Part shown: positions 6,205 to 46,287 of the stretch, piece after piece
How the letters are laid out: every line of letters begins with the position of its first letter
Position numbering within the stretch: the stretch's first letter is position 1
Assembly (NCBI GenBank): GCA_964637115.1
Contig: CAZWVL010000007.1
Location: forward strand, 13,041 to 77,040
Reading direction: 5' to 3'
Origin: an uncultured Methanosarcinales archaeon
GTDB taxonomy: Archaea > Nanobdellota > Nanobdellia > Woesearchaeales > ARS49
DNA length: 64,000 nt
Made by a program: the position numbers and the translations under genes
The notes under the pieces: model-generated
Databases searched by the model: none
What the model saw: only the letters and a program-made list of their open reading frames with translations
Told to the model about the DNA's origin: nothing

Positions 6205-6212
6205 TTTATAAA
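6205..6212 (-). promoter_or_regulatory. TATA box (tttataaa within gggtttataaaggtt) 23 nt upstream of leaderless rpl21e ATG
   Basis: Fixed spacing. The same extended motif recurs at 19713, 32775 and 51095. Confidence 0.7.
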
Positions 6213-6313
6213 GGTTACTGTGTATTCTCCACTAGCAAAAGCTTTAAATATCAGCTGAACTCTTAGCCATTCAAGAGTAAAAACAAAATAGGTGCGATGA
6301 GGTGTTGTGACAA

Positions 6314-6715: not shown

Positions 6716-6721
6716 TAAATT

Positions 6722-7384: not shown

Positions 7385-7386
7385 TT

Positions 7387-9783: not shown

Positions 9784-9808
9784 GCCACATTAATTGCCTA
9801 TTATTGAT

Positions 9809-11590
9809 ATGACTCACACATCCCTTAAAGAGCCTGATATTTTGAACAGCACAATTGACGGCTTCAAAGTATTGGAGAAAATAGGCCAGGGCAGATTCTG
9901 CAAAGTGTATAAGGTACAAAGCCCAGGCCTCAAAAACAACTTTTCAGCATTAAAAGTATTCCATCAAGGCACGCCTCTTTACCGCCAAGTAGCCCAATCA
10001 GAAGCAGAAATCCTTGACCAGTTAGACCATCCAAACATAATCAAAATACAGCACGCAAATCCTGCATCGGAATTACCCTATATGTTTGTTGAATTTGCAC
10101 CGGAAACATTACGCAACAGAATGAACAAGAAACCCAATCCATTCTACAGCTATGATACTCAAAATCCGGCCGCGGTTAACTATGAGCCCGTATTACGCTT
10201 CACTTCACAAGTCCTTGATGCACTTACACATGCCCATTCACGCGGCGTTGTACACAGAGACATCAAGCCAACCAATATTCTTGTAGGCAGAACCGGCTCT
10301 GCAAAACTCACTGACTTCAACCTTGGCAGCAAAATGACCTTAGAACAGGCAGGACTTGCAGAAGAAATTGAGACTTCTGACATTGAACTTTCAAATGTGG
10401 TTGCTTTAAGCAAAGAAAAGCTGTCGCTACAGGGCGGCACTGAAGGCTACCGTGCTCCAGAACAAATACGCGGAGAAAAAGAGATTGGACCGCGCACAGA
10501 CATCTACCAAGTTGGAGTTGTTTTATATGAAATATTAACCGGCCAATTGCCGCAGGGAAAATACAAGCCAGTATCACAGATTAATCCAGCTGTTCCGAAA
10601 GCGCTGGACGAGATAATTGGCATTGCACTTGAACCAGACCAACGTGACAGATACGTCAAGGCAGAGGACATGAAAAAAATGCTTGAGAAAGTTCTGGCTG
10701 GCGAATTAGTGCAGGGTGGCAAACGATTCGGATTTCTTGGAAAATCAAAAGCAAGCGAAATTGAAGAAGAGAAACGGCGCATCAAAAACGCACAAGAAAA
10801 TTTTGAGAAAGGGATAAGAGACACAGAGGACTCGGCGCAACGTGCGAAACGGGATGCGGATTATTCAGAACGCCAGGCATTGCAATGGAAAGAAGAAGAG
10901 GAACGCAGAAAAAAAGCAAATGAAGAGACTGCACGACAGGCTCAGGAAAAAAAGACGAAACTTGAACAAATTGTTAGCGAGTTCAGGGCGAATGCTTCTG
11001 GATTTATCGCATATTTGAGCGATGAGGGATTATTTGAAATACTGCCGGCGAAAGACGCTGGACAAAAAAAAGCAACAAAAGTCATCGATGTAGAAGTTGA
11101 ACCAACAGCAATTAAGGCATTCTTGGCATCCAGAGATGGAACGACATTCTATGTTATCAGCCAGTATCATGAAAAAGACCCGAATGACAGGCATGGCCCC
11201 TCGATAAAGAAATACAAAATCGCCAGCCTTGAATATGACGGCAAAGAAGTCAAGACAAAAAATGAAGGCAATGTTCCAAGCATGCACAAAGCATTCATAT
11301 CAGGAAACAAATTGTACATACAGACCAATGATAAAAAAGACTGGTATGCATGCGAACCTGGCAAGGACTTAGAAAAGAAAACAGCCATAATGATGGAATT
11401 TGAACGAATTCGTGAATCACCAGATGGAAAATACAAAGTAATTGATGCCCATGAAAACAGCAACATCAGCAGACAATACGGCTTCATCAAGATTACTTCA
11501 GCTAAAGGAGAAGAAATTGCAGAACTGGGTGCTGGCAGTTTCCCCTGCTGGCTTGCATCTCTGCCAGGACAAAATGAAAAAGCAAGGTGA
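9809..11590 (+). CDS. Eukaryotic-like Ser/Thr protein kinase with coiled-coil and about 200-aa C-terminal domain
   Basis: GQGRFCKVYK..ALKV, HRDIKPTNILV, DFNLG, GTEGYRAPE. E/K/R-rich segment, then an uncharacterised C-terminal region. Confidence 0.85.
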   Translation: MTHTSLKEPDILNSTIDGFKVLEKIGQGRFCKVYKVQSPGLKNNFSALKVFHQGTPLYRQVAQSEAEILDQLDHPNIIKIQHANPASELPYMFVEFAPETLRNRMNKKPNPFYSYDTQNPAAVNYEPVLRFTSQVLDALTHAHSRGVVHRDIKPTNILVGRTGSAKLTDFNLGSKMTLEQAGLAEEIETSDIELSNVVALSKEKLSLQGGTEGYRAPEQIRGEKEIGPRTDIYQVGVVLYEILTGQLPQGKYKPVSQINPAVPKALDEIIGIALEPDQRDRYVKAEDMKKMLEKVLAGELVQGGKRFGFLGKSKASEIEEEKRRIKNAQENFEKGIRDTEDSAQRAKRDADYSERQALQWKEEEERRKKANEETARQAQEKKTKLEQIVSEFRANASGFIAYLSDEGLFEILPAKDAGQKKATKVIDVEVEPTAIKAFLASRDGTTFYVISQYHEKDPNDRHGPSIKKYKIASLEYDGKEVKTKNEGNVPSMHKAFISGNKLYIQTNDKKDWYACEPGKDLEKKTAIMMEFERIRESPDGKYKVIDAHENSNISRQYGFIKITSAKGEEIAELGAGSFPCWLASLPGQNEKAR

Positions 11591-19720: not shown

Positions 19721-19807
19721 GGTTGCTAAAGGCATATTACTCAAAATAAATTGACTCAACTAACGTCGAGAAAAAGCATATTGGGAAGGGGGCATTTTGA
19801 GTCAAGT

Positions 19808-32532: not shown

Positions 32533-32649
32533 CGGGCCGGACGGGAATGTCAACCATGGGCAGGAAGCCCATGACTTTTGAACCCGTGACCATCCGCTTT
32601 CTCTCTTGCGATAAAAGGCGGATGCTCTACCAGACTGAGCTACCGGCCC
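32533..32649 (-). tRNA. tRNA-Lys (anticodon UUU) with two introns: 13 nt at 37/38 and about 30 nt in the T-loop
   Basis: Minus strand reads GGGCCGG-TA-GCTC-AGTCTGGTA-GAGC-A-TCCGC-CTTTTA[TCGCAAGAGAGAA]A-GCGGA-TGGTC-ACGGG-TTCA..[..GTCATGGGCTTCCTGCCCATGGTTGAC..]..T-CCCGT-CCGGCCC-G. All four stems pair. No encoded CCA. Confidence 0.8.
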
Positions 32650-32782: not shown

Positions 32783-32880
32783 GGTTACGGTTTTTAAGGG
32801 CGTTATACATAGGGGGCAGATAATTCTAAACCCTTTTTTGTGCAAAATTGCCGGGGTTGGCTTGAGGAGTATCTTAGTGC

Positions 32881-33969
32881 TCAAACGTCGGCACGCGTAA
32901 ATGCTTGATACGCTTCCTCGATAAAATTCTTTATTTTCTTTTTAAATAATTTCCGATCAAAACGGATAGCGTTTTTTCTGCAATCTTCGGCTGAAAATCT
33001 CATTCGTTCAAACTTGAGAACGGCTTTCGCTAATTCTCCTGCTGTTTGCTCATGGAAAAAATGTCCTGTTTTGCCTTCAGTAACAGTCTCTAATAGTCCT
33101 CCTTTGGCGTATGCGACAACCGGCCTGCCGCAGGCCTGGGTTTCTAAAGGAGTTATACCAAAATCTTCTTCACCCGGAAATATGAGCGCCTTGCATCTCC
33201 TATAATAATCTCTGACTTCATTGTCAGGCAATCTTCCCAAAAACTTGATATTCGCATGAGCCATGTTTTTCAAACGAGACGCTTCAGGTCCATCTCCGAT
33301 AATTATTAGCTGTTTTCCAAGGTGATTAAACGCCTTAACGGCAAGGTCTATTCTTTTTTGAAGCTGAAGTCGAGAAACAATAAGGTAAAAGTCCTCTGCC
33401 TTGCCTTTCGGAGTGAAAAAATCAACATCGACAGGTGGGTAAATAACAGTCGAATCCTGGTGATAGTGTTCTTTGATACTATTTTGGGTATTCTTTGAGT
33501 TGGCAATAAAATAATCAACGTTTTTTGTTTGCCGAAGATCCCATTTTTTTAGTCGTGAAAGCGTCCATTTAACCAGCGGACGGATGACCGGATTCATCCT
33601 ACTTAGATACGTCTTGGGCATTGTGTATACAAATCTCATAGGGGTATGGCAATAACAAATGTGGCAAGTCCGAGGAGGTTTGTTAATGTTCTTAGAAAAA
33701 GCTGCTGAACTGCTCAAAATCATATCGAAGTCTGACAAATCCAGACTTTCTGTTGCCCGTGGATACAGCGGAAGATACACGTAATGGTTTTTTCTTGAAA
33801 AAGGGAGCTTTTGAGCGAAACTTGTCCTGATTTTTGCGTCTGGAAAATATTGCTTTTTGTGGATCAAGGTGAAAATTGGCGCTTGAGGGTAGAGTTCATG
33901 GAATATCTCCAAAACTCTTTCACCGCCGCCAAATCCAGTCAGGAAATCATGTACTAGAGCGAGTTTCAT
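32881..33969 (-). CDS. Family 4 (GT-B) glycosyltransferase
   Basis: C-terminal EEDFGITPLETQACGRPVVA (E-x7-E-like) motif. Confidence 0.85.
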   Translation of the reverse strand: MKLALVHDFLTGFGGGERVLEIFHELYPQAPIFTLIHKKQYFPDAKIRTSFAQKLPFSRKNHYVYLPLYPRATESLDLSDFDMILSSSAAFSKNINKPPRTCHICYCHTPMRFVYTMPKTYLSRMNPVIRPLVKWTLSRLKKWDLRQTKNVDYFIANSKNTQNSIKEHYHQDSTVIYPPVDVDFFTPKGKAEDFYLIVSRLQLQKRIDLAVKAFNHLGKQLIIIGDGPEASRLKNMAHANIKFLGRLPDNEVRDYYRRCKALIFPGEEDFGITPLETQACGRPVVAYAKGGLLETVTEGKTGHFFHEQTAGELAKAVLKFERMRFSAEDCRKNAIRFDRKLFKKKIKNFIEEAYQAFTRADV

Positions 33970-33999
33970 GTTGGAAGGTGTTTTTGTGTTGTAAATTTT

Positions 34000-35583
34000 T
34001 TATTTGGCCAGATCATTTTCTAATTCAACATAATTATAGTAGATTATAAAGGGAATTGCCATTACTGTGGCGAATATAAAATGCAGCCCATGATGGAAAA
34101 AATAGTCAAAAAGATTATTGATTGAAAAGGCTAAAAAGCTAGCGAAGGATGCCAACACCAAAGGAATTTTCCTAAGCTTCAAACAGCAAATTATGAATAA
34201 AAACATTATAGACAAAAACAAAAGCAAGACAAACACCCCTCCTTCCAACCCGATCTGCAAATAAAGATTATGAATATGACTCTTAGAAAACTCCTTACCC
34301 AATCCATACATTATTATCATCGATTCATAATTTCCAGGCCCGATTCCAAACCAAAGGTGGTTTTTAATCATGAGCAAAGCAGTTCGATATGCTTTAAACC
34401 TCGCCGAAACGCCAATATCTGCTGCAGAGAATTCCGCCTCCTGAAATGCGCCCGAGGGTGTTGTTCCGGAAGATGCTTCTTCTGGAACTTGAACTAAACT
34501 CACACCACTCGCTTCTATATTCTTTTGCACATCAAAGCCGAAACGATTTGTTAGTGTTCCATTTAGAATAAATGGACTAACTGCGATAAACAAAAACAAG
34601 AACGCAAAAGCTACCTTCATTCTCATTTGTTTATTGCCTTTTACAATATGATATGCCGAAAGTAAAAGAAAAACAATACTAAATGACAATATTGAAGCTC
34701 TTGAAACTGATGAGAATAATGCGGCAAAGCATATTAGAAAAGCTAATGAGAGAAAAAAATATTTCATCATGTTTTTCTGATGAAAAGACAATACCAGAAT
34801 GAAAGGCAGGACTAAGTTCAGAAATCCTCCCAAAAGATTAGGTTGATCGAGCGTTCCATATCCTCTGATAAAATCATCATTTACGACATACTCAAGTTCA
34901 ATATTCACAGGATTCGTTATACCAAAAAAATGCTGGTGCATTGCCAAAACTGAATTAAGAACTGCAAAAATAATCAGCCACTTAATAGCTCTCTTTACAT
35001 CAAACTTCCCTAAGAGCATCAACATAGAGATGAGACCAAAAAACTCTATCATGTGTATCAAAAAGCGGCTATTTGAAGAGAATGTTTTTTCCAAGGCCAA
35101 AAAAGGGCTCTGAAAAACCGATAAAAAATAAAAAATGCTAGTCAAAGTCACAAATGTGAGAAAAAAGATTATTGCTGTAAAAGTTGTCCAGAATAATGGC
35201 TTGTCTTTAACTTTGAAATATTTCTTTCTAAATAGAAACGCGATATAAAGACCCAACATAACAGGTAAATTGACAATATATGCCAAAAATATACTTTTGT
35301 TTAAAATCAGGATATTTTTATTAACGCCAAATACCGCAAAAAAAATAACAATAATCACGCCATTTTCAACCTTCAAAAGAGTCAGGATGAAAATAAGAAT
35401 AAGAAAAGGTATGAAAGAATACAAGTTGAGCGGAGACAATATAATAAATATTGAATAAAGAATGGCGGCAATAAATTGCAGTTCATTCAAATTAATTTTT
35501 GTTAGCAATGAATTTATCCAATTTTTTTCATCGCATAAGTTTAAAGGATGAACCTTATTATACCCCGCTTGTGAATCTCCCAT
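34000..35583 (-). CDS. O-antigen ligase/polymerase-like (Wzy-type) polytopic membrane protein
   Basis: 527 aa, at least 10 TM segments with a large loop (..GVSLVQVPEEASSGTT..) before the last TM block. Confidence 0.65.
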   Translation of the reverse strand: MGDSQAGYNKVHPLNLCDEKNWINSLLTKINLNELQFIAAILYSIFIILSPLNLYSFIPFLILIFILTLLKVENGVIIVIFFAVFGVNKNILILNKSIFLAYIVNLPVMLGLYIAFLFRKKYFKVKDKPLFWTTFTAIIFFLTFVTLTSIFYFLSVFQSPFLALEKTFSSNSRFLIHMIEFFGLISMLMLLGKFDVKRAIKWLIIFAVLNSVLAMHQHFFGITNPVNIELEYVVNDDFIRGYGTLDQPNLLGGFLNLVLPFILVLSFHQKNMMKYFFLSLAFLICFAALFSSVSRASILSFSIVFLLLSAYHIVKGNKQMRMKVAFAFLFLFIAVSPFILNGTLTNRFGFDVQKNIEASGVSLVQVPEEASSGTTPSGAFQEAEFSAADIGVSARFKAYRTALLMIKNHLWFGIGPGNYESMIIMYGLGKEFSKSHIHNLYLQIGLEGGVFVLLLFLSIMFLFIICCLKLRKIPLVLASFASFLAFSINNLFDYFFHHGLHFIFATVMAIPFIIYYNYVELENDLAK

Positions 35584-35627
35584 ATTTTTAAATAGAAAAA
35601 TGTAAGCTTAAATATTTATCGGGGCAC

Positions 35628-36848
35628 TCATCTGATCAATGCCTTCGCCTTGGAACAATACACTATAAACAAAAGAATCTGCGTGCCTACTGTGGCAATA
35701 GCAGCACCAATGAAGCTATATCGGGGAATCAGCAACAGATTCAATACAATGCCTACCAGAGCGCCGAAGCCCGCTGCCTTCACCACGAATTTTTGCTCAT
35801 TGACTGCAATAACGAAATAGCTGACGATTGTTGAAAAAGAAAGAACGAAGAAAGACCAAACGAGTATTTGCAGTACGGGAACGGATTTGTCAAATTCTGG
35901 TCCGTATAATGTTTTAATGAGCAAGGGCGAAGCGATAAAAATTGCTATGCTTACCAATCCTCCAAGAAGAAGCGACGCCCAAAAAATCTTTTTAAAAACC
36001 TTTTTCAGCGCAATCTGGCGCTGATGCAGGGAAGTAAATCTGGGCAAAACCGCTTTAACCAGCACCAGGGGAATAATGCCCAAAGCAAGTACAATCTGAT
36101 TTGGTGCGCTAAACAAGCCAACAGCCTCCTCGGTTTTCATAATTCCAAGCAAAATCGTTGCTATCCTTTCACTAACTAGCGTGAAAGCAACGATAAAGAA
36201 AAAAGGCAGACCCTCCCTTAAAAAGATCTTCCACTTCTCGATATTAACCAAGAGCTTCGTCTTGCCGAATCTTCTCAAATAATAAATTGTGACAAAAAGA
36301 CCAATCAGGGAGGCGAGCAAATAGAAAAAGAATATTTTTTCCACACTAATGGTGCCCAAGATCGTGCCAAAGATAGCAATCATTGCAATTATGAAAAAGA
36401 GTGATTTCTCGACGATTTTTGCAATAGCCTCAAACTTTAACTGCTCATAAGCCCTGAATATCACTTTCAAACTTTCATCGATCATATCTATGCTAACAAA
36501 AATACCAGCCAGGACGATTGCCAGAATGCTCTTTTTGAGAATAAACCCGACTATGATCATGAGAACTATTACTCCTGCAGCCAGGAAAAATTTTAACGAA
36601 AGAATGTTTTCCAGATATTCTCTTTTCAGCTTTTTATTCTGTGCAATGTTTTTCAGATAGGCAAAAGGAATGCCAAAATCTATCAGCATGCCAAACAGCA
36701 AAGCGTATGCGAAAGTGAAAGAGTACAAGCCGAATTTTTCAACACCCAACGCTCTTGCGAAGAGAACCGTGAGTATGAACATCAACACCTTTGCAAAACC
36801 TTCTGCAAAGAGCATGTATGCTGAGTTTCTTATAATGCGCTTAAGCAT
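35628..36848 (-). CDS. Wzx-like oligosaccharide flippase (MOP superfamily)
   Basis: 406 aa, about 12 TM. N-terminal NSAYMLFAEGFAKVLMFILTVLFARALGVEKFG is typical of polysaccharide biosynthesis/flippase proteins. Confidence 0.75.
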   Translation of the reverse strand: MLKRIIRNSAYMLFAEGFAKVLMFILTVLFARALGVEKFGLYSFTFAYALLFGMLIDFGIPFAYLKNIAQNKKLKREYLENILSLKFFLAAGVIVLMIIVGFILKKSILAIVLAGIFVSIDMIDESLKVIFRAYEQLKFEAIAKIVEKSLFFIIAMIAIFGTILGTISVEKIFFFYLLASLIGLFVTIYYLRRFGKTKLLVNIEKWKIFLREGLPFFFIVAFTLVSERIATILLGIMKTEEAVGLFSAPNQIVLALGIIPLVLVKAVLPRFTSLHQRQIALKKVFKKIFWASLLLGGLVSIAIFIASPLLIKTLYGPEFDKSVPVLQILVWSFFVLSFSTIVSYFVIAVNEQKFVVKAAGFGALVGIVLNLLLIPRYSFIGAAIATVGTQILLFIVYCSKAKALIR

Positions 36849-37971
36849 AGAATTCCTTGTAAACTCCCAATGTTTCTAGAGCTGCTTTCTGCCAGCTAAA
36901 TCTTTTTGCTTGAATTAATCCCTTTTCTATCATTTGTTTTCTTAATTTATCATTTGTCAGGACACTCTTCATGGCACTGGCCAATTCGTTGACATCATTA
37001 GGATTTACCCTTATTGCAGCGTCTCCTGCAACTTCAGGTAATGAGGAAACATTGCTTGTGATAACCGGACAGCCGCAAGCCATTGCTTCCAGAACCGGGA
37101 GCCCAAAGCCCTCATGCAAGCTGGGAAAAACAAAAGCTTCTGCACCATTATAATAGAATTTCACCTCAGAATGATCAACGGGTCCGATAAAGCTCACATC
37201 GCCTTGCAAATTGAATTTTTCAATTGAATCGAAGACCTCGTCTGAACGCCAGCCTTTGCTGCCCGCAATAATGAATTTTTCTCGAATCTTATGCTCTTTT
37301 TTCAGCTTTGCGTATGCCTCAATTATTCTCGTGACATTTTTTCTCGGCTCTATTGTACCAACAAAAAAGATAAAAGGAAAATCGATTTTCCTTTTTTTTA
37401 GAAAAACGTCAACCGTTTTCCTATTAAGAGGGTTGAAAAGATCACTAGCAGCTTCATAAATAACAGAAATTTGCTTCGGGGGGATTTTAAAATACTTAAT
37501 CATGCCTTCTTTTACCGATTCAGAAACAGCAATTATTTTTTTGGCCCGTTTCACAGAAATTTTCGTGAGTAAATTGTGATAAAGATTTCTTTTCGAATCA
37601 CGAGTTTCTTGAGATTTTATAGGCACTAAATCATGCATCGTTACAATTGCCTTCACAGGACAAAAAAGAGGAAGAATATTCATGCCTGAATGAAAAAGAT
37701 CAATCTTATATCTCAACAGCAAGATGGGAAGAATCAGTTGCTCCCAAAATACTCTTATTTGAGGATTCACCGTATTAATTCTTGATTGAATAAAATGGAA
37801 ATTTTTCTTGTGCACGAAATGTTTGAAAGTATTATTTACGAAAATAAAATACTCATTCTGCGAATCTATTTTCGCAAGTTCATCAATCAAATTATAAAGA
37901 TACGTACTGACGCCTGTGTTTCGAGGCGACTTACCCAATAGGAGCAATTGTGCGTTAATTCCAATGCGCAT
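36841..37971 (-). CDS. Family 4 (GT-B) glycosyltransferase
   Basis: [31 protein letters not shown]-like ttatttaa at 37994-38001, 23-24 nt upstream of the ATG. Confidence 0.85.
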
Positions 37972-38043
37972 TATTCATCAAGATAAAAGGTGTTTATTTA
38001 AACTTTTGTTTAACTAATAATTGCAATCCTATGCGGAGACAGA

Positions 38044-39387
38044 CTATTTTCTAAAAATAATCATTGGAATAGTTTTAAGAATTATTTTAATATCAAAAGG
38101 TAATGACCAGTTTTCTATATAATAAAGGTCGTATCTAATTCTTTCCTTCAGGGAAGTGTTTCCTCGGTAACCGTTGACTGCTGCCCAACCAGTCAATCCT
38201 GCCTTAATATTCAACCTTTCGAGGTATTTGGGGACTTTTGTTTCAAAATCTCTGACAAAAACAGGTCGCTCTGGTCTCGGTCCAACAACGCTCAGGTCTC
38301 CATTTAATACGTTAACAAGTTGGGGTAATTCATCTAGATATGTTTTCCTCATGAAACTTCCCAGTCGCGTGCACTTTTGTCTGTCGTGACTCCACATAGC
38401 ACCCGTTTTGCCTTCAGCTTTGTCGACCATGGATCTGAATTTGTATAAAGTGAAAAATTTGTTCCCTTCTGTCACTCTTTTTTGCTTGTATATTATTGGG
38501 CCTTGTGAATCAAGTTTAATTGCGATTGCCAAAAGAATAAGAAAGGGAGAGACAATAATGAGCAATAAGCTTGCTACAACAACATCAAAAGCACGCTTTA
38601 AAACAAGGTTAAATCCTTTCAAAGGGGTTTTAACTGTTAGCAGTGGAATTCCTTTTATTGTGTTGAGGTCGATTTTTGTGATGATGTCAAGCACGTCAGG
38701 AACTATTTTATAGGTTATTTTTTTGCCGCAGGCGGAGATTATCTGCAGGATTTTTTCGTGATCATTGGGACCAAAAGCGAGTACCAGTTCGTCTATTTTC
38801 CTATTATCAATTATGCTTTTTAATTCGTTCAAATCTTTTATTGATGAATGCTTGCTATTTATGAAATCAACAATTTTATATTGCGGAAGATCTCCTATTT
38901 TCTCATGTATTTTTCTAGCAAAGACTTTATCCCCGATGATAAGCACTCGTTGAACGCCAATCCCGCGCATGAATAAATATTTGTTCACTGCATTGACCGC
39001 TTTACTCGAGATAAAAACAACTAAAATAGAGAGAATAAAAGCAATAACAACAACCAATCTCGAATAAGATTCTGCTCTATACAGAAAGGTGGTGGATAAA
39101 AGGATCAAAAAGCACAGACTCAGGGCCTTTACCACATTAAAAAAATCGATATTCGCGGATTCATAAACATTCATGAGCTTAAAGACAACCACGCTGACAA
39201 CCGTAACTACTATCATCGCCCTTAAATAAATTGAAAATGCAGGGATTTCGCTCGTCAATGGAATTAAAGGGGTATAGAATCTGATAAAGTACGCCAGCGT
39301 AAAAGCAAGATTTATGCTTAGAATATCTACTATAAAAAGAAGAAATTTTGAAATCCATTCGTAATCCTTTTGCCACCTGTATTTCAT
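38044..39387 (-). CDS. Polyprenyl-phosphate hexose-1-phosphate transferase (bacterial sugar transferase, WbaP/EpsL-like)
   Basis: N-terminal TM block, then KRAFDVVVASLLLIIVSPFLILLAIAIKLDSQGPIIYKQKRV..YKFRSM..DELPQLVNVLNGDLSVVGPRPERP. Confidence 0.85.
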   Translation of the reverse strand: MKYRWQKDYEWISKFLLFIVDILSINLAFTLAYFIRFYTPLIPLTSEIPAFSIYLRAMIVVTVVSVVVFKLMNVYESANIDFFNVVKALSLCFLILLSTTFLYRAESYSRLVVVIAFILSILVVFISSKAVNAVNKYLFMRGIGVQRVLIIGDKVFARKIHEKIGDLPQYKIVDFINSKHSSIKDLNELKSIIDNRKIDELVLAFGPNDHEKILQIISACGKKITYKIVPDVLDIITKIDLNTIKGIPLLTVKTPLKGFNLVLKRAFDVVVASLLLIIVSPFLILLAIAIKLDSQGPIIYKQKRVTEGNKFFTLYKFRSMVDKAEGKTGAMWSHDRQKCTRLGSFMRKTYLDELPQLVNVLNGDLSVVGPRPERPVFVRDFETKVPKYLERLNIKAGLTGWAAVNGYRGNTSLKERIRYDLYYIENWSLPFDIKIILKTIPMIIFRK

Positions 39388-39492
39388 TTTGTGTAGCTAC
39401 CAAATGCTTTCGAAAGCCTTATTCTACATAAATGTTGGCTAAGCGCAGAATCCGCTTCTTTGTTTTAAAGGTATTGGTAGTTAAGAGAAGAA

Positions 39493-39526
39493 AAAATTAA
39501 AAGTTAAAATAAAAAAAATAAAAAAA
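39493..39526 (-). terminator. Oligo-T (minus-strand) terminator region downstream of Cys-rich paralog 1, with a 19-nt block duplicated at 40135-40153
   Basis: Plus strand aaaaaattaaaagttaaaa(t)aaaaaaaataaaaaaatta. The same aaaaaattaaaagttaaaa block lies 3' of paralog 2. Confidence 0.5.
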
Positions 39527-40111
39527 TTATAGACCTTTGCCGCACATTTCCTTCAAACAGGCCTCCCCATTCTGTTCGCAGCCCTGTATGCACGCGGCGT
39601 TACCTGGGTTAATAATGTTGCAGCTGGTTATGCAATGTCCTTTAAAAATATTACAAAAGTGTGCACAGTCTCCAGGAGTGTCGCAAATGACATCTTTTGT
39701 AACGGTGCATATCAGTTTGGAGAAGTGTCCTGGGTCCTCTTCACATGTGCGCGTAGCTATGCTTGGAAGAACATACCAAGTAACACCAGTCACCTTGCAA
39801 GGCAAAGGTGGAGCTACAGCTCCACACTTACCTCTTGCTTTCGAGGCCCATGTTGTAATAGCAGAATCACAAAGTGAGTTCATAATGGCATTCGTATTTA
39901 AGTTCCCATGGGCTGCACAATTGCTAGGACTTGTGAAAGACCTGTCCTTTATTACTGTCAAGCCGGGGTCTGCACTTACGAAGCACGGGCCTAGTACGGA
40001 ATTCGAATTAGGCGGAGGAGCTTGTTGCGCCATAGATGCTATAGCAAGAACAAGCGCAAAAATAGTTGCTATAACAGAAATTGATAATCCTATTCTACCT
40101 TTTGTATCCAT
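39527..40111 (-). CDS. Secreted 16-cysteine protein, paralog 1 (194 aa)
   Basis: MDTKGRIGLSISVIATIFALVLAIASMA signal/anchor. Conserved CEEDPGHFSKLICTV and four CxxxC-type pairs. ATG preceded by AAAGGTGAT. Confidence 0.75.
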   Translation of the reverse strand: MDTKGRIGLSISVIATIFALVLAIASMAQQAPPPNSNSVLGPCFVSADPGLTVIKDRSFTSPSNCAAHGNLNTNAIMNSLCDSAITTWASKARGKCGAVAPPLPCKVTGVTWYVLPSIATRTCEEDPGHFSKLICTVTKDVICDTPGDCAHFCNIFKGHCITSCNIINPGNAACIQGCEQNGEACLKEMCGKGL

Positions 40112-40162
40112 TATTATCACCTTTTTTTACGATAAAAAATTAAAAGTTAAAAAAGAAAAAAA

Positions 40163-40765
40163 TTATGGGTCTGCGCAGGCCATCTTGCATCGCATTTCCT
40201 CGGCTACACAGGCTTGTTTGCAGGCTGCATTGTCCGTACCACAAAATTCATCGCAGGACGCTTTAAAAACGGTTGTGCACGTCTTTTGACAGTCTCCAGG
40301 AGGTGCGCAAATTGCGTTAGCTTTAACTGTACATATCAGTTTGCTGAAGTGCCCTGGATCCTCTTCGCAAGAGCGTACTTGCGAACCTTCTGCAAGCCTC
40401 CATGAAACTGCACTCATCTTACAAGGCGAAAACGGTTTAGTTTCGCCGATAAACGGCGGAGGCAGTACAATCGCCGCGCACTTATTTTTTGTTAGAGCGA
40501 ACCAATCTGTAAGAGCACGCTCGCAAAGTCTATTCATAATTGCATTCGTATTCAAGTTTCCATGCGCTGCACAAGTACTAGGAGTTGTAAAACTTTGATC
40601 TCTTATTACTGTTTGATCTGCGGTCACTACTACAAAACAACCTTTTAGAAACGTCTCCGCGAAGTCAGGCGGGGTTACAATAGTTGCCGATGCCATCGCC
40701 ATAACAAGCGAAAGCGCAGTTGCGATAACGGCAATAGCCAATCCTATTCGACCTTTAGTATCCAT
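40163..40765 (-). CDS. Secreted 16-cysteine protein, paralog 2 (200 aa)
   Basis: MDTKGRIGLAIAVIATALSLVMAMASA.. Same Cys spacing as paralog 1. ATG at 40765 preceded by AAAGGTGAT; the track ORF over-extends. Confidence 0.75.
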   Translation of the reverse strand: MDTKGRIGLAIAVIATALSLVMAMASATIVTPPDFAETFLKGCFVVVTADQTVIRDQSFTTPSTCAAHGNLNTNAIMNRLCERALTDWFALTKNKCAAIVLPPPFIGETKPFSPCKMSAVSWRLAEGSQVRSCEEDPGHFSKLICTVKANAICAPPGDCQKTCTTVFKASCDEFCGTDNAACKQACVAEEMRCKMACADP

Positions 40766-40887
40766 TATTATCACCTTTTTCTTTTTTGGAACTGAAAAGT
40801 AGTTATTAATAATCTCAGTATTTAAACTTTTCTGTTTTACATTCGTACCAAAACATTTAAATATAAGAAGATTATCGTTATTCACAG

Positions 40888-41406
40888 GTGGTTAAAATCG
40901 GCTTAAGAAAGAACTTGGTTATCGGAGGGCTTCTGGCAATTCTTGGGTGCTCGGAAAAAAAGGAACCATACACTCCTCCCACGCCGGAAAAACCAGCAAA
41001 TCAGGAAAAAAGCACCGAAAAAACTCAGCCTCCTCTACAACCAAGCAGACTTGAAAAGTATGAACAACCTACACAAACACGTCAAGCTTATGAGATTGTT
41101 TATTTTTATGACACGAATAAGATAGAAAAGCATGGCGAAGGCGTTGAGGGTGATCCAGAACTCTCCCTACTCTGCCATAACTACGGCTTTTCTCTGTTCA
41201 CTATTGCTTCTAATGCTGAGCTTGCCAAAAAGGAATTTAAACTAGCCGATAAGCCAGTGATCATGATTTGCAAAGATATTATCGAGCTTGAACGATTTTT
41301 AGTAACAGACAGGCAGCAACTTGCTAGCCGCCTTGAGCAGGAGTTACGGTACCATAGTGGAAAAGGTACGCCTCCAGCAGGATGCAAGGATTATCAGAAG
41401 AAATAA
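40888..41406 (+). CDS. Putative lipoprotein, Pro/Gln/Thr-rich linker plus about 100-aa globular domain
   Basis: GTG start 25 nt after TATA tttaaata (40856-40863). LLAILGC lipobox. Confidence 0.6.
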   Translation: MVKIGLRKNLVIGGLLAILGCSEKKEPYTPPTPEKPANQEKSTEKTQPPLQPSRLEKYEQPTQTRQAYEIVYFYDTNKIEKHGEGVEGDPELSLLCHNYGFSLFTIASNAELAKKEFKLADKPVIMICKDIIELERFLVTDRQQLASRLEQELRYHSGKGTPPAGCKDYQKK

Positions 41407-41409
41407 CTG

Positions 41410-43089
41410 TTAAATCTCTTTTTTAACCTCATAAATGAAATATCCTGTTACATTGCTCTGCACTTCCTTAAGATATACACAATCGAGAGCTTTTTGTGAA
41501 ATAAGAAGTTTAGGCTTGTACCGCTCAACCCAGTCCAACCCCTGCTCGCACGAAGGTGACTCAAAAAATCTGTCCGCTTCCCCTGATAATTCCGCACCAC
41601 CCATCCAGTGAACAACAACAGAATTATTAGTTATGGGAATGGCGGAACTGAACCTCGGATTAGCCAGTATCCTCTGGCCGGAATAATGAATTTTCAGCCA
41701 ATCGAGCATCTCGTAATCCTTGTCGTCCACAATATAATCAAAAAGCGGGGGGAAATTGGCACGAAGTTGGAAGCCAAAAATCAATGCGAGGAGTACGCCT
41801 GCGATTAATATAAAGACGTACTTCTTCTTTATTTTATGCCTGAGAATTCCAAGAAGATGACTAAAACCTATACTGCCGATGAAAATAGCGAACAAAAGGA
41901 CCAGATATATCAGTCTCTCCGGCCTAATTAGGTAAGAATATTTGATTATGGAACTAATTAAAAAACCTACAAGTGAAAAAATGAAAAAGAATGATAAAAT
42001 TTTTTGATGCTTCTCCCCAAGTATAATATACAATCCAAACAGTCCACAAATAGCGAGTGGAATTCCAATGAGAAAATAATTTATGTTGTGGTACGGAAAC
42101 TCTAATCGCCAGAAATTGGACAAAATTGTTTCTTTAATACCGCCCTTCCAGAACCAGCTCAAGAAGACTGCAGCAGATACGGCCAAGAGTCCAATAAAAA
42201 AAGCGCAGAAAACCTTCCAGTCCTTTTTCATGTTATAAACAACATAAGGCAAGGAAACGACAAGAATGTACGCAGCAGCGCTCCCATGCAGCGTGAATGC
42301 GATGAAGATAAAAATACCCGCAAGAATCAGATAATTCGCACTTCTTTCAGTAAGCCATTTGTGCATGAGAAGAAGAAAGAGGAAGCAGAGTATGAGTGAA
42401 ACTGTGAAAGGGACTGCCAGAATCAATCCCAGTATCAAAGAATTGCCCGGGATAGTGGCAGACAGAACCATGGCCAAAAGACTCGTCCAGAAATTCTTAG
42501 TCAGTTCATAAATAAACACAAAAATCACGAGGGCAGTGATAATACCGAACAATGCTGGCAGGAACTTGTAATCGAGCAACGGATCCATCTTAGTTAGCAG
42601 GAAAATGCTGGCAAGAAGCGCAGGAAATCCGGTCTTTGCATCGCAGTCATAAATATCATTATATGGATTTATACAGAGCTTACCAGTTTCTGTTATCTTA
42701 TACGCATGGTTCATGTAAAAGTATTCGGTGACGTGCAAAGGAAACCTATATGTGAAATGAGGAGAATAAATCAGAAAAAATACGACAATAACACCACTGA
42801 GAAGAAAAATGATCTTTTTAACCTCGAATTTTGGCACATCAACTAGCTTGTATCTTTTTGAAACAAAAAGGGACATAATTGTCAGCAGGGATCCTGCGAA
42901 CAATGCTAATTTTACCGTAAAGCCATTGATTACATAAAAATTAAGCAACAATCCAGTTAAAACCAAAAAAGAAATAGAAAGCCCCAGCCCACAAACCACC
43001 CGTTCAAGAAAATCCTGCTTTTTGAAGAAGAAAAAAGTCAGCAAGTATCCAGTTACTAATAATATAACAATCCACAATAAACCCGGCAT
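41410..43089 (-). CDS. Large polytopic membrane protein with C-terminal soluble domain (possible GT-C-type glycosyltransferase)
   Basis: 559 aa, at least 12 TM segments followed by about 110 non-hydrophobic residues. The GT-C idea rests on architecture only; no WWDYG motif seen. Confidence 0.75.
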   Translation of the reverse strand: MPGLLWIVILLVTGYLLTFFFFKKQDFLERVVCGLGLSISFLVLTGLLLNFYVINGFTVKLALFAGSLLTIMSLFVSKRYKLVDVPKFEVKKIIFLLSGVIVVFFLIYSPHFTYRFPLHVTEYFYMNHAYKITETGKLCINPYNDIYDCDAKTGFPALLASIFLLTKMDPLLDYKFLPALFGIITALVIFVFIYELTKNFWTSLLAMVLSATIPGNSLILGLILAVPFTVSLILCFLFLLLMHKWLTERSANYLILAGIFIFIAFTLHGSAAAYILVVSLPYVVYNMKKDWKVFCAFFIGLLAVSAAVFLSWFWKGGIKETILSNFWRLEFPYHNINYFLIGIPLAICGLFGLYIILGEKHQKILSFFFIFSLVGFLISSIIKYSYLIRPERLIYLVLLFAIFIGSIGFSHLLGILRHKIKKKYVFILIAGVLLALIFGFQLRANFPPLFDYIVDDKDYEMLDWLKIHYSGQRILANPRFSSAIPITNNSVVVHWMGGAELSGEADRFFESPSCEQGLDWVERYKPKLLISQKALDCVYLKEVQSNVTGYFIYEVKKEI

Positions 43090-43168
43090 AGTGAGCGAAA
43101 AAGTTGCCGGTGCTTTAAAAGTTTCTATTAAGCGCTAGGCTGAATTTTATAAAATTAAGAGAAAAAAA

Positions 43169-43756
43169 TCAGGGGTCTATACACGTGTCAATGCATGCTC
43201 CCATATCAGACACGCACTTCTGCCTGCAAGGCGCGTTATCATCGCCACACGTTGACAAGCAAATTTTCTTGATACGCTCACAGTCTTTCACACAGTCACG
43301 CATATGCGAACATATCGGCGTATCTTTGGTTGTGCATGTGAGTTTGACTATGTGCCCTGGATCAACCACGTCGCACTTGCGCGTATCAGCCAGACCACTC
43401 CTAATAAAAATGGTTGCCCATGGCGAATTGATTGTGCACGCTCTTTCTCCGGAAACAGTCACGCATGATTTCTTTGCCTGGCTTATCCAAGATTCCTGCG
43501 TTTCCTTACATAGCGTATTCAATCTCGCATCCGTCTGCAACTGAGCTGCAGAAGGACAGGGACCAGCAACCGTAACGTCCTTTACGACAGTAATATCCGT
43601 TATTACAGCATTTGCTGCTTCACATTTTGCAATTGAAGAATCGGGCGCGGGAGCTGCCACAGCTGTTTCCGCACCTATGCTTGCAAAGGCAACAAACAGC
43701 GAAATAATCGTTGCTATAAGAGCGATTCCAAGTCCTATCCTCGCTTTTACGTCCAT
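43169..43756 (-). CDS. Secreted 16-cysteine protein, paralog 3 (195 aa, more divergent)
   Basis: MDVKARIGLGIALIATIISLFVAFASIGA.., CDVVDPGHIVKLTCTT. Same 16-Cys spacing. GAGGTGAT SD. Confidence 0.75.
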   Translation of the reverse strand: MDVKARIGLGIALIATIISLFVAFASIGAETAVAAPAPDSSIAKCEAANAVITDITVVKDVTVAGPCPSAAQLQTDARLNTLCKETQESWISQAKKSCVTVSGERACTINSPWATIFIRSGLADTRKCDVVDPGHIVKLTCTTKDTPICSHMRDCVKDCERIKKICLSTCGDDNAPCRQKCVSDMGACIDTCIDP

Positions 43757-43878
43757 CAGAATCACCTCTTTATTGTACCCTTAAGTGCGCGCCTATTTAA
43801 AAAATTTTCCATTATACTGCTGGCACATCGCCCTTGAACACGCGAAGCTTTTTATTCAAAAGAAATTCCTGACCTACC

Positions 43879-44547
43879 ATGAGCACAAACAAAAAACACC
43901 CATTTTCCCAACACCATCTCTATCTGCTAATTCTCAGCATTTTTTTATTCTGTTTTTTTGCCAAAATAACTGAAGATGTCATGAATAATGGGTTCTTTAC
44001 TAAATTTGATTCGTTGGTGAGTACGAAAATAGTTTTGCTCTGGAATCCTGTGCTTACAAAAATAATGGTGTTCATCACAAATATCGCCAGCACTCCTAGT
44101 TTGTTCATTCTTTCACTCACGTTTTTGGGCGTGCTCGCATACAAGAGAAAATGGCGTGATTCCTTGCTCTTGATATGTGCACTGGCTGGCACACGGATAT
44201 TGGAGCTGCTTACAAAATTCATGGTCCACAGAGCGCGACCGGAGAATGCATTGATTGAAGTTTCTAACTACAGTTTTCCAAGCGGGCATGCAGCAATGTC
44301 AATCGTTTTCTTTTCACTGCTTATCTATTCATTTAAGGACGACATCAAAAATAAAATGTTCAAGAATTTTTTTATAACCGCTAATGTATTCTTATTCATA
44401 TTGATAGGATTCAGCAGGATTTACCTTAATGTCCACTGGTTGAGCGACGTGCTGGCAGGATTTGCCCTCGGGTCATTCTGGCTCACCTTAATGATCCTGA
44501 CTTTTCAATCAGTAATTGCTCTCGCAAAAAAGACTTTCCCTTCCTGA
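43879..44547 (+). CDS. PAP2-family (polyprenyl-diphosphate-type) phosphatase
   Basis: KFMVHRARP, PSGHA, SRIYLNVHWLSDV: the three PAP2 motifs. Confidence 0.85.
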   Translation: MSTNKKHPFSQHHLYLLILSIFLFCFFAKITEDVMNNGFFTKFDSLVSTKIVLLWNPVLTKIMVFITNIASTPSLFILSLTFLGVLAYKRKWRDSLLLICALAGTRILELLTKFMVHRARPENALIEVSNYSFPSGHAAMSIVFFSLLIYSFKDDIKNKMFKNFFITANVFLFILIGFSRIYLNVHWLSDVLAGFALGSFWLTLMILTFQSVIALAKKTFPS

Positions 44548-44560
44548 AAAACTGGAAAAC

Positions 44561-44604
44561 GGCTCCTTCTTGTTTGCCGGTCTAAATCTTGAAATACGCC
44601 GAGG
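44561..44604. repeat. 44-nt copy (36/44 identical, ungapped) of the tRNA-Asp 3' end plus its downstream flank
   Basis: ggctccttcttgtttgccggtctaaatcttgaaatacgccgagg versus 46153-46196 agctccttttcgattgccagtctaaatcctgaaaaacgccgggg. Confidence 0.8.
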
Positions 44605-45108
44605 CTACTTCAAAAGCTCCTTAGCCTTTTGCAGATAGAACAGGTCCCTTTTAACTATAAACTTGCCATTATACTCATCGGGCCTTTCGTTCTTAAGCAG
44701 CTCTATTGCTTTATCAATTGACACCCAAACAAGTTTAGCCCCTTCTTCAATTTCTTCCTGAGTAAATTCCGGCTTGCCTTCCTTGACAACCTCTGCAAGA
44801 AAACAATGCGACGTTTGAACCATATCCTCGTGCGTGCGGTGCTCAATAATCTCACCCAGTTCACCAATCACACGAACAGAACAACCAGTTTCCTCCTTGA
44901 TTTCCCTGGCAAGCGCATCAGGAATGCTCTCGCCGGAATCAACACCGCCACCTGGCAGCTTATGGTATTTGTGTTTGCTAATATGAAGCAAAGCGATAAG
45001 ACCCTTATTCATCATAACTGCCCTGGCAGCAGTTCTAGGAATATGCTTAGAATCCTCTTTTGGCTTCACACCAACATCAACATCACTGAGTTCAAGAATG
45101 GTTTTCAT
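44605..45108 (-). CDS. Nudix hydrolase
   Basis: Nudix box GGGVDSGESIPDALAREIKEETG. Confidence 0.85.
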   Translation of the reverse strand: MKTILELSDVDVGVKPKEDSKHIPRTAARAVMMNKGLIALLHISKHKYHKLPGGGVDSGESIPDALAREIKEETGCSVRVIGELGEIIEHRTHEDMVQTSHCFLAEVVKEGKPEFTQEEIEEGAKLVWVSIDKAIELLKNERPDEYNGKFIVKRDLFYLQKAKELLK

Positions 45109-45114
45109 AAAATT

Positions 45115-45134
45115 AAAACGCCGGGGCCGGGATT
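45115..45134. repeat. 20-nt exact copy of the 3' terminal 16 nt of tRNA-Asp plus 4 nt of trailer
   Basis: aaaacgccggggccgggatt is identical to 46185-46204. Confidence 0.9.
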
Positions 45135-45208
45135 ACTTGCGAAGTGCGCTTCGCAAGTTGCTCGGAAATCCAAAGGATTTCCGACATGAACCCGAGGGTT
45201 CAAATCCC
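45129..45208. other. 80-nt element predicted to form a four-way junction (closing stem plus three perfect hairpins); strand and function unknown
   Basis: GGGATT(45129-34)/AATCCC(45203-08); ACTTGCGAAG-tgcg-CTTCGCAAGT (45135-58); CGGAAATCC-aaa-GGATTTCCG (45163-83); TGAACC-cgag-GGTTCA (45187-45202). Confidence 0.6.
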
Positions 45209-45347
45209 CTTCACAAAATAGTGCAAGAGCTTCGCTCGAAACATACGCCGTTGTGTTTACTGTTCTGGCTTTTTAATCTTTCTGGATGAGCCGTGCATTA
45301 CAATTTCATTACATATCTCAAAAAGCGGGCAAACACCCTAAGAAAAG

Positions 45348-45734
45348 GTGAAGAGTTTTGCGATTAAGTTTGGCAATATTTATAAAGAAAATCATTTTTA
45401 TGAGTTTTCAATGGGACGTCTCGTAAAAACTCAGGATTGGGAGAGCCGAGCGATTGTAAGTTTTTTGGGCGGATACAGCATAACACAACAAGCTTTTAAG
45501 GCAGACTTTGAAACAAAGCGAGGAAAATTTTACGTGCTTATTTGGGCAGATCTAGACCGACATGAAATGGTTATTAATGATCGTTATAATATAGAAGCGT
45601 TGCAAAAGGCGTGCAGTCAAAATGCGTTTGTACTGATTTCTGAATTGTTCCCGAAGGGAAGCAAAATAATAACTTCGTATAATGAGATTAATGATGTTTT
45701 GGCAAAAATTGCAGATATCATAAAAGAAGAATGA
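45348..45734 (+). CDS. Hypothetical protein, 128 aa (GTG start; start uncertain)
   Basis: ORF with ordinary composition. No motif and no clear TATA at the standard distance. Confidence 0.45.
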   Translation: MKSFAIKFGNIYKENHFYEFSMGRLVKTQDWESRAIVSFLGGYSITQQAFKADFETKRGKFYVLIWADLDRHEMVINDRYNIEALQKACSQNAFVLISELFPKGSKIITSYNEINDVLAKIADIIKEE

Positions 45735-45985
45735 TTGCTCATACAACCTTTAGGAACAATTCCGGATTGCTTGCCAGGCTTATCATGGATATGCGATATT
45801 AACCTAATAACCTCTAGTTTGTTGAGGGGTGTTCTACAGGTCCAATTTTTACTGTTCTTACCAAGCTTAGTTTTTTCTTAAAAATTTGCGCGAACCGGTA
45901 CAAATCCTGAAAAGAATTTTACTTTCATTTTATTTATAAATGAAAGTTGTTGCCGGTTCAAATCCTGTTTTGCAAGGATAGATTT

Positions 45986-46099
45986 ATGAATTTCGCTCAC
46001 AACTTGCTTTCCGAAATTGCCAGAATGGTGCTGAGAGGCGCTATTCCGGCAAAAACAATGCAAGAAAGTGATTTGGCTAAAATTTTGAGAAAAAAATGA
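45986..46099 (+). CDS. Possible small ORF, 37 aa
   Basis: MNFAHNLLSEIARMVLRGAIPAKTMQESDLAKILRKK, 46 nt downstream of the palindromic TATA 45933-45940. Preferred over the antisense 124-aa track ORF on composition only. Confidence 0.2.
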   Translation: MNFAHNLLSEIARMVLRGAIPAKTMQESDLAKILRKK

Positions 46100-46188
46100 C
46101 AAGAAAAACAAGCTCAGAAAAGACTTTTTTCTTACCTGAACGGCCGGCAAACAGCTCCTTTTCGATTGCCAGTCTAAATCCTGAAAAA

Positions 46189-46261
46189 CGCCGGGGCCGG
46201 GATTTGAACCCGGGTTGCAAGCGCGACAGGCTCGCGTGCTAGACCACTGCACTACCCCGGC
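46189..46261 (-). tRNA. tRNA-Asp (anticodon GUC), intron-less
   Basis: GCCGGGG-TA-GTGC-AGTGGTCTA-GCAC-G-CGAGC-CTGTCGC-GCTTG-CAAC-CCGGG-TTCAAAT-CCCGG-CCCCGGC-G, followed by TTTTT. Confidence 0.9.
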
Positions 46262-46287
46262 AGCAGTTTTGAGAGGGAAACACGTGG

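Follow-up and report, generated by a model that had tools for sequence, protein, structure and literature searches.

The stretch of DNA considered here (the window, 64,000 nucleotides of contig CAZWVL010000007.1 from an uncultured archaeon) carries, between positions 39527 and 43756, three genes for paralogous cysteine-rich proteins together with the genes for a lipobox protein and a polytopic membrane protein. The three cysteine-rich open reading frames (ORFs), designated p1 (39527-40111, 194 aa), p2 (40163-40765, 200 aa) and p3 (43169-43756, 195 aa), with lengths counted from their ATG starts, all lie on the minus strand at the places given by an earlier prediction made from the DNA letters alone (the original prediction), and each of their products contains exactly 16 cysteines, as had been counted then. 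The neighbours are also those described earlier: p1 is the second gene of a tandem pair with p2, a 172-aa lipobox protein is encoded divergently from p2 on the plus strand (40888-41406), a polytopic protein of 559 aa with about 13 hydrophobic helices is encoded on the minus strand (41410-43089), and the cluster is flanked by a PAP2 phosphatase gene and a polysaccharide cassette. Homologous loci are referred to below as L001 and so on, and homologous proteins as P0001 and so on; P0003 is a near-identical variant of p3. Because split RpoB, RpoA' and Rad50 are encoded among the ORFs of the window, and RpoB'' is 70-96% identical to that of metagenome-assembled genomes (MAGs) of Woesearchaeota/Nanoarchaeia, the source organism is, judged from these gene products, a DPANN archaeon of the Woesearchaeota. 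Scans for bacterial promoters and terminators carry no information for such an archaeal window.

The relatedness of the three proteins is far past chance, with BLASTP E-values of 1e-25 to 1e-58 and identities of 52% between p1 and p2 and 36% between p1 and p3. All of them begin, as had been noticed, with MD(T/V)K(G/A)RIGL and run on into a hydrophobic stretch. The core around DPGH reads RTCEEDPGHFSKLICTV in p1, RSCEEDPGHFSKLICTV in p2 and RKCDVVDPGHIVKLTCTT in p3, and the pattern proposed for it is present throughout, except that p3 has one additional residue ahead of DPGH. Similarly, the cysteines said to occupy matching positions are strictly aligned in 15 columns, the first cysteine of p3 being shifted by two. 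The duplicated flanks reported for the tandem genes are found in both p1 and p2, namely the Shine-Dalgarno (SD) region AAAGGTGATAATAATG and the 19-nt sequence TTTTAACTTTTAATTTTTT downstream of the stop codon, and a run of seven T residues stands directly 3' of the stop codon in p1, p2 and p3. The SD and ATG context of p2 is common to all homologs.

Public gene calls missed p1 and contain instead an antisense ORF (39537-40289, plus strand, 250 aa; three assemblies), so that p1 is missing from the protein database. The choice made by the gene callers in these three assemblies would favour the view that the cysteine-rich frames are accidental and that the plus-strand ORF is the true gene. The minus frame is nevertheless the coding one, because it is kept with a fixed cysteine framework in ten divergent homologs, with a conserved SD region and ATG and with the T-run after the stop; because the strain variant in L005 differs from p1 by 9 substitutions, 4 of which alter only third positions of minus-frame codons and are synonymous; and because the ratio of nonsynonymous to synonymous divergence (omega) of the cysteine-rich genes is 0.22-0.45, which shows that they are under purifying selection. 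In addition, the antisense ORF is split into shorter pieces in L001. The accidental-frame explanation was thus rejected, and its residual probability is negligible. The public call of p2, P0001, starts at 40885 and comprises 240 aa, i.e. it begins forty codons upstream of the ATG start, which is probably too early. Because standard gene callers miss or mis-start the cysteine-rich genes in this way, the family is under-counted in databases.

The original prediction recognised no known family, and our searches concur. Pfam-A, NCBIfam and PHROGs yielded no relevant family at E<=1, a PDB profile search gave no match below E=0.38, and there was no significant fold match when an AlphaFold2 (AF2) model was compared by Foldseek with PDB (best E=0.17) and BFVD (best E=0.058); resemblances of the model to the LPP20, HP1454 and DUF74 folds (E 0.16-1.4) were not significant and were set aside. 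A profile search of 1.84 billion representative proteins recovered no more than eight true members (P0001-P0007 and P0012); it also picked up the giant proteins P0008-P0011, Bacteroidota-type type IX secretion system proteins whose matches are spurious (hhalign probability 1.8%). Word-indexed searches of 5.8 billion clusters gave 2 and 5 family matches. When a degenerate DNA pattern spanning the SD region and the N-terminus was searched in metagenomes, it retrieved only four contigs, all from one Joint Genome Institute sample and all previously known. Neither the motif nor BLAST revealed any family member at 80 rpoB''-anchored Woesearchaeota loci, a scan of viral contigs for the family found nothing, and a literature search on cysteine-rich surface proteins of DPANN archaea yielded nothing useful. 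As far as these searches reach, the cysteine-rich family is an orphan, previously undescribed one. All its members stem from a handful of samples, and this narrow known distribution (few samples, one clade) limits the general reach of the family.

The cysteine framework is kept across the family at 22-51% identity to p1, as expected from the earlier proposal of a conserved framework; the figure of 16 invariant cysteines applies to p1-p3, and the wider family has 12, 14, 16 or 18 of them, always an even number. The last eight cysteines follow the mirror-symmetric spacing C-3-C-6-C-3-C, loop, C-3-C-6-C-3-C, with a final gap of 3(4), and in p3 the mirror pairs formed by Cys 155/159/166/170 and 177/181/188/192 all sum to 347. 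Two homologs have lost some of these eight residues, P0012 exactly Cys 2 and 7 and P0004 exactly Cys 3, 4, 5 and 6, and because exactly these residues would pair with one another in an antiparallel ladder (1-8, 2-7, 3-6, 4-5), these losses support a four-rung hairpin. The AF2 model starts with a transmembrane (TM)-like helix at residues 7-26 and a low-confidence Pro-rich linker, continues with an alpha/beta core (45-100 and 119-143; predicted local distance difference test (pLDDT) >90) composed of a beta-hairpin (45-59), a helix (75-98) and a second beta-hairpin (119-143), with DPGH at a beta-turn, and ends with two helices joined by a turn (146-167 and 172-190). This modelled helix-turn-helix, the mirror-symmetric spacing and the paired losses agree with the earlier suggestion that the C-terminal CxxxC pairs build a disulfide-stapled hairpin, and they support a predicted C-terminal alpha-hairpin stapled by a four-rung ladder of putative disulfides.

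In twin Cx3C/CHCH proteins, such as the small Tim and Cox17-type proteins, Cx3C motifs on two antiparallel helices pair across the hairpin, and the CS-alpha/alpha toxins (kappa-KTx) are built in a like manner. The cysteine-rich family would display this pattern fourfold, and P0004 is exactly its minimal twin-Cx3C version. The likeness is one of analogy, not homology: neither a sequence nor a fold match to the Tim, CHCH or kappa-KTx proteins was found (PDB entry 2ndd was non-significant, E=1.9). Twin Cx3C/CHCH hairpins have two rungs whereas four are predicted here, and the hairpin is here appended to an 8-Cys alpha/beta domain in a predicted exported archaeal protein.

The 16 cysteines and a conserved G-H/Y motif might alternatively belong to extracytoplasmic metal-binding or redox proteins, in which the CxxxC motifs and His would bind Zn, Fe or Cu or shuttle electrons. 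Many Woesearchaeota inhabit anoxic settings, and the joint loss of Cys 3-6 in P0004 would also fit the loss of one four-Cys site. In contrast, disulfides are favoured over four-Cys metal sites because P0012 lost only Cys 2 and 7, a change that would turn a metal site into a half-site but leave a disulfide ladder intact with three rungs. Furthermore, the His of DPGH is a Tyr in four members, CxxCH, CxxC and ferredoxin-type motifs are lacking from the proteins, and so are genes for cofactor biogenesis from their surroundings. A metal or redox role is therefore very doubtful.

The mean pairwise identity within the family is 58% over residues 1-26 and falls to 28% over the remainder (21% excluding Cys columns). 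Among the 10 members, K4, R6, I7 and G8 do not vary and position 5 is occupied by either G or A, and since the codon for Arg6 varies among them (AGA, CGA, AGG or CGT), it is the N-terminal peptide itself that is under selection. A small-x-small motif occurs at residues 26-29 in every member, and with it the N-terminus fits a Sec signal or anchor. It fits as well an archaeal class III (prepilin-type) signal, in which the H-domain is preceded by a charge at -2 and by G/A/S at -1 (PMC4371748), a rule with which the invariant K4 and the G or A at position 5 of all 10 members comply. Either interpretation would put the cysteine-rich domain outside the cell. The proteins, presented earlier as secreted, are thus still predicted to be exported, and with a class III signal or an anchor they may be membrane-anchored or displayed.

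At L011 (807-1373, plus strand), between a family member and a second paralog of the membrane protein gene, lies the gene for a 189-aa protein that has the same N-terminus (MNIKARIGISVAVIAT...) and 16 cysteines in an unrelated pattern. The signal module is therefore common to more than one ectodomain type.

A class III signal would open the possibility that the proteins are type IV pilin-like, being cleaved by a PibD/ArlK-type peptidase after G/A5, with the helix serving as the scaffold of a pilus- or bindosome-like structure or as a membrane stalk and the cysteine-rich domain as the exposed tip. This explanation partly overlaps with the account of exported, displayed proteins that is developed below, and adds to it a specific route of processing and assembly. 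In its favour, K4, [G/A]5, I7 and G8 sit directly ahead of the hydrophobic domain, the N-terminus is conserved at the peptide level, and the +3 Gly and the short leader recall the archaellins, in which the Gly at +3 hardly ever varies and cleavage persists with leaders of just 3-5 residues (PMC10117864). Class III signals are found also on non-pilin surface proteins (PMC2910488), and the Haloferax PilA1-6 paralogs likewise have a common H-domain and divergent C-terminal parts and are unlinked to pilB/pilC. The family thus resembles the archaellins, Haloferax PilA1-6 and the bindosome sugar-binding proteins of Sulfolobus in the -2 charge, the -1 G/A, the +3 Gly, the short leader and the presence of paralogs with a common H-domain and differing C-terminal domains. 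It differs from them in the unusual Arg at +1 and in the Pro-rich linker right after helix 7-26, where pilins and archaellins have a long continuous alpha-1 helix. In addition, the small-x-small motif of every member fits signal peptidase I, no Pfam pilin, archaellin or Class_IIIsignal match was obtained at E<=1, and the assembly genes pilB/pilC/pibD were not seen at any of the loci or among the window ORFs scanned. Pilin-like processing and assembly is therefore possible, albeit rather unlikely.

For the 559-aa membrane protein, the original prediction had left the choice between a modifier and an exporter. Its AF2 model (predicted TM score 0.75) matched in Foldseek AftA (3e-8), STT3A (1e-7) and AglB (4e-7), and then DPY19, PglB, ALG12, AftB and Pmt4, with probability 1.00 and TM-scores of 0.5-0.6 for AftA, STT3, AglB, PglB, DPY19 and ALG12; the 22 PDB matches at E<=1e-3 were all to glycosyltransferase C (GT-C) enzymes, with TM-scores of 0.47-0.60. 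The protein and its homologs have weak Pfam matches to PMT, PMT_2, DUF6541 and PTPS_related; for the window protein the PMT score is 16.8 bits, under the cut-off of 22.7, and homolog P0018 has a precomputed PF13231 match and a PMT_2 match at E=4.7e-7. The protein is hence, as modelled, a GT-C-fold glycosyltransferase, which retains the modifier and discards the exporter. It is not an STT3/AglB/PglB enzyme because the W[WY]DxG motif is absent from it, as it is from P0013-P0019. The motif of the first loop is PLHVTEY in the window and PxHxDE[WY] in the homologs, and in this first outside loop after the core TM1 the residue E122 is shared by all 7 homologs. The protein ends in a small extracytoplasmic domain with two invariant cysteines. 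The window protein has in common with the known GT-C enzymes (AftA/AftB/Emb, STT3/AglB/PglB, DPY19, PMT, ALG) the predicted fold, the C-terminal outside domain and the position of its gene inside a lipid-linked glycan locus, and the likeness may extend to the acidic first-loop residue E122; it is set apart from them by three extra N-terminal helices, the lack of WWDxG, the Thr in place of the first-loop Asp and the sub-threshold PMT score. A scan of genome contigs with the GT-C protein gave zero relatives, and the island of this lineage is absent among GTDB species representatives.

A further GT-C homolog, P0016, whose identity to the window enzyme is 28%, is encoded at 6001-7545 of the 40.9-kb locus L093 (ENA ERZ27254756). 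This contig contains many small unannotated ORFs on the same strand, an HNH endonuclease and DUF5131, and looks like a virus or mobile element bearing a surface glycosyltransferase.

The lipobox protein consists of the lipobox GGLLAILG-C, a Pro/Thr/Glu/Lys-rich stalk and a domain of about 100 aa with two invariant cysteines, and has no family match in Pfam/NCBIfam searches. The lipobox GGL[LV]AILG(A)-C-S is invariant in 5 homologs and conforms to a class II signal, from which lipidation is predicted. The outside domains of the GT-C protein and of the lipoprotein thus each have a single invariant Cys pair, an indication of an oxidising compartment and a further argument against a metal or redox role of the cysteine-rich proteins.

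The three-part neighbourhood recurs in relatives. A GT-C gene adjoins the cysteine-rich genes in every locus with enough flank: it encodes 559 aa in the window and L001, 571 aa in L007 and a PMT_2-like protein of 380 aa in L009, and in L011/L012 one GT-C gene lies upstream and a second, 558-aa paralog downstream of the cysteine-rich genes. The lipoprotein gene is the divergent neighbour in the window, L001, L006, L007 and L012.

The whole cluster lies within a strain-specific genomic island of about 12.3 kb (32806-45118), delimited by synteny, where close relatives have 0.5-1.2 kb or other cargo. The order in close relatives is rlmN, orf154, tRNA-Asp, a short element, tRNA-Lys, rpoH and rpoB'', and in the window the 12.3 kb are inserted between the short element and tRNA-Lys. 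The island starts with a NUDIX hydrolase gene (44605-45108, minus strand) and a PAP2 phosphatase gene (43879-44547, plus strand; profile match), a candidate for polyprenyl-diphosphate recycling, and continues with p3, the GT-C gene, the lipoprotein gene, p2 and p1. It is completed by a gene for an initiating phosphoglycosyl transferase (Bac_transf; 38044-39387, minus strand), which L001 and L007 lack at this position, and by a glycan assembly cassette (32881-37971, minus strand) that comprises GT4 (36841-37971), a Wzx-type flippase (35628-36848), Wzy_C (34000-35583) and a second GT4 (32881-33969); the PAP2 gene and the polysaccharide cassette named in the original prediction were thus both found. 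The tRNA-Asp(GTC) gene (46188-46262, minus strand; tRNA scan and synteny) is the conserved anchor of the insertion hot-spot, and a 16-nt exact direct repeat of its 3' end (AATCCCGGCCCCGGCG; 45119-45134, minus strand) forms an att-like boundary immediately after which the island begins; 2 exact copies of the repeat are present, against 0.12 expected. Synteny with L013-L016 and this exact repeat identify a tRNA-associated island. No integrase gene was found in the island, and the distal repeat is degenerate at best.

Several further features were observed at this hot-spot. The stretch of about 1 kb (45135-46188) between the exact 16-nt repeats at 45119-45134 and 46189-46204 contains one ORF of 128 aa (45348-45734, plus strand) with no family match and looks like a small integrated remnant; in L013 the two repeats are only about 110 nt apart. 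Downstream of tRNA-Asp, a conserved element of about 90 nt (45125-45215, minus strand, in the window; 3690-3785 in L013) ends in the tRNA-Asp 3' repeat and has a T-arm-like sequence, GGATTTGAACCC; it is unrecognised by ARAGORN and Rfam. The tRNA-Lys(UUU) gene (about 32545-32649, minus strand) has a 14-nt anticodon-loop insertion and a further insertion in the T-arm region, is missed by ARAGORN and is sub-threshold in Rfam (23.9 bits), and its L013 ortholog lacks the anticodon-loop insertion. In other Woesearchaeota the same tRNA-Asp/rpoH hot-spot holds unrelated cargo (L020, 2923-10000; L017, 6774-8570; L019, 3012-5321), judged by eye to consist of aminotransferase-, Lrp/AsnC-, PIN-, acetyltransferase- and kinase-like ORFs.

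A comparison of the window with L001 revealed 93.5% nucleotide identity over a block that takes in the GT-C and lipoprotein genes, the intergenic region and 65 nt at the start of p2, beyond which the identity collapses, placing a recombination breakpoint at the end of the signal-coding region of p2. The lipoprotein is 93% identical and the adjacent cysteine-rich genes 48-64%. The divergence at synonymous sites (dS) amounts to 0.12-0.18 within the conserved block and exceeds 0.5 or reaches saturation for the cysteine-rich and GT4 genes. A first description of fast-evolving cysteine-rich genes beside slow neighbours was therefore replaced by that of a recombination mosaic, because dS is also discontinuous. 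The loci L001 and L007, which come from the same metagenome, have flanks that are about 100% identical, including the first 40 residues of a helicase, and within these flanks the nucleotide identity is 55-77% over the GT-C and lipoprotein genes and still low over the cysteine-rich genes; the GT-C proteins of the two loci agree in 51% of their residues. Conserved blocks are retained in the signal-coding 5' region (79-82%) and in the roughly 60-nt 3' flank of the array (97%); the latter, T-rich in the window (39460-39522, minus strand) and 90-92% identical there to L001 and L007, is the 3' edge of the variable cassette. Between the window and L007 the proteins are 51% (GT-C), 40% (lipoprotein) and about 24-29% (cysteine-rich) identical. 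The divergent intergenic region between the lipoprotein gene and p2 (40766-40887), together with the signal-coding 5' ends of both genes, is more conserved between loci than the parts coding for the mature domains. Near-identical flanks thus enclose alleles that are only about 25-60% identical, and, as read from these alignments, this is allele replacement through recombination and not merely fast evolution.

The helicase that flanks the module in L001, L002, L007 and L008 is a Hel308/Ski2-like ORF; in L001 it spans 493-1143 (minus strand, 216 aa, N-terminal part) and is possibly truncated. There is no copy in the window, where the module therefore lies in a different genomic context.

Such a mosaic is the pattern familiar from surface-antigen loci. 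Hypervariable islands in which surface glycans or proteins are replaced are known from O-antigen and capsule loci and, as strain-variable islands for the cell envelope, from other prokaryotes, and the present locus shares with them the Wzx/Wzy-type cassette at a tRNA-flanked hot-spot, the near-identical flanks and the several breakpoints. Here, in contrast, the variable unit adds a GT-C enzyme, a lipoprotein and an array of orphan cysteine-rich genes, the signal-coding 5' end of the array is the recombination anchor and the host is a DPANN archaeon.

The explanation that we favour, with a confidence slightly better than even, is that the three genes encode orphan exported, disulfide-locked proteins within an accessory, strain-variable envelope module of Woesearchaeota, a role that fits both the glycan cassette and the hypervariable, mosaic island and is close to the cell-surface module first suggested. 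Each protein would comprise a 26-residue export signal or anchor (M-D-x-K-[G/A]-R-I-G-L plus hydrophobic helix) conserved at the protein level, a short Pro/Ser-rich stalk, an alpha/beta domain with 8 Cys and DPGH at a beta-turn, and a C-terminal helical hairpin with a four-rung disulfide ladder (Cys 1-8, 2-7, 3-6 and 4-5 of the last eight). The ectodomain would reside outside the membrane, either anchored by the N-terminal helix, uncleaved or cut prepilin-style after G/A5, or freed by signal peptidase I near residue 28. The nine family proteins contain a single N-x-S/T sequon versus 11.4 +/- 3.0 expected, a depletion that the lipoprotein does not show and that fits an exported protein avoiding N-glycosylation. 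On the outer face of the membrane, the GT-C enzyme would use lipid-linked sugars that come from the cassette beside it (phosphoglycosyl transferase, GT4, Wzx, Wzy_C, PAP2), most plausibly to O-glycosylate the stalks of the cysteine-rich proteins and/or of the lipoprotein, or else to decorate the surface glycan. Deeply divergent alleles of the module would be exchanged by homologous recombination with the signal-coding 5' end and the 3' flank as recombination anchors, a pattern expected for surface structures diversified by viruses or by the host or partner cell on which DPANN archaea depend. What the data show directly is the family with its cysteine framework, the GT-C fold, the linkage of the genes, the island and its mosaicism, from which the export topology, the disulfides, the target of glycosylation and the biological role are inferred.

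Several observations weigh against this account. The AF2 model of the cysteine-rich protein is a moderate one (mean pLDDT 67) built on 9 sequences, and the N-terminal segment matches more than one processing route. The Asp of the first loop is replaced by Thr in the window enzyme and its L001 ortholog (HVTEY versus HxDE[WY]). The distant GT-C homologs P0017 and P0019 are located in glycan loci devoid of cysteine-rich neighbours, and therefore the enzyme may primarily serve the glycan pathway. The test behind the sequon depletion counts related sequences as independent. Finally, diversifying selection is deduced from the mosaic structure, and omega is <1 wherever it can be estimated.

The proteins could also be secreted cysteine-rich toxins or antimicrobial effectors, archaeocin-like or host-directed, with the lipoprotein acting as an immunity or helper protein and the variation reflecting an arms race. 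A conserved signal followed by a variable mature part with a fixed cysteine framework, the tandem arrangement of paralogs that have strong SD sites and terminators made of T-runs, and the unrelated cysteine-rich domain behind the same N-terminus in L011 are consistent with this explanation. The combination of conserved signal, hypervariable mature region and fixed cysteine scaffold is known from conotoxin and defensin families, and also from the polymorphic cysteine-rich recognition receptors of the Myxococcus TraA type; strain polymorphism is a further point of likeness, whereas there is no homology to these proteins and omega is <1 here where measurable. The lipoprotein, however, remains 93% identical where the adjacent cysteine-rich genes are 48-64% identical, unlike cognate immunity pairs; the locus has neither a dedicated exporter nor a protease nor an immunity-like small membrane protein; the constant companions of the family serve glycosylation and not secretion; and 170 mature residues plus a stalk look like a displayed protein rather than a diffusible peptide. 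A toxin function thus seems improbable.

Returning to exported proteins of an envelope module, a more specific and speculative version, which we consider unlikely as a whole, would be a polymorphic surface-recognition system of DPANN archaea, with prepilin-type processed, ladder-stiffened proteins that are O-glycosylated by the GT-C enzyme, whose ectodomains are swapped via the signal-coding sequence and whose alleles set host attachment or virus attachment. Variable islands for surface glycans and proteins are already known as a kind of system; new are the cysteine-rich family, its predicted four-rung ladder hairpin, the class-III-like N-terminus as recombination anchor, and the constant association of the family with both a GT-C enzyme and a lipoprotein, here in an archaeon of the DPANN group. 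Archaea of this group live attached to other cells, and the surface molecules that mediate this contact, and their variation, are almost wholly undescribed. The locus provides a compact candidate, with an orphan family of testable disulfide architecture, a dedicated GT-C enzyme, a conserved lipoprotein and an allele-swapping signature.

Elsewhere in the window, two large ORFs (147-2258, minus strand, 703 aa; 19751-22450, plus strand, 899 aa) gave zero Pfam/NCBIfam matches, and two genes for eukaryotic-type Ser/Thr protein kinases (9794-11590, plus strand; 61246-63654, minus strand) are present within these 64 kb of a small DPANN genome.

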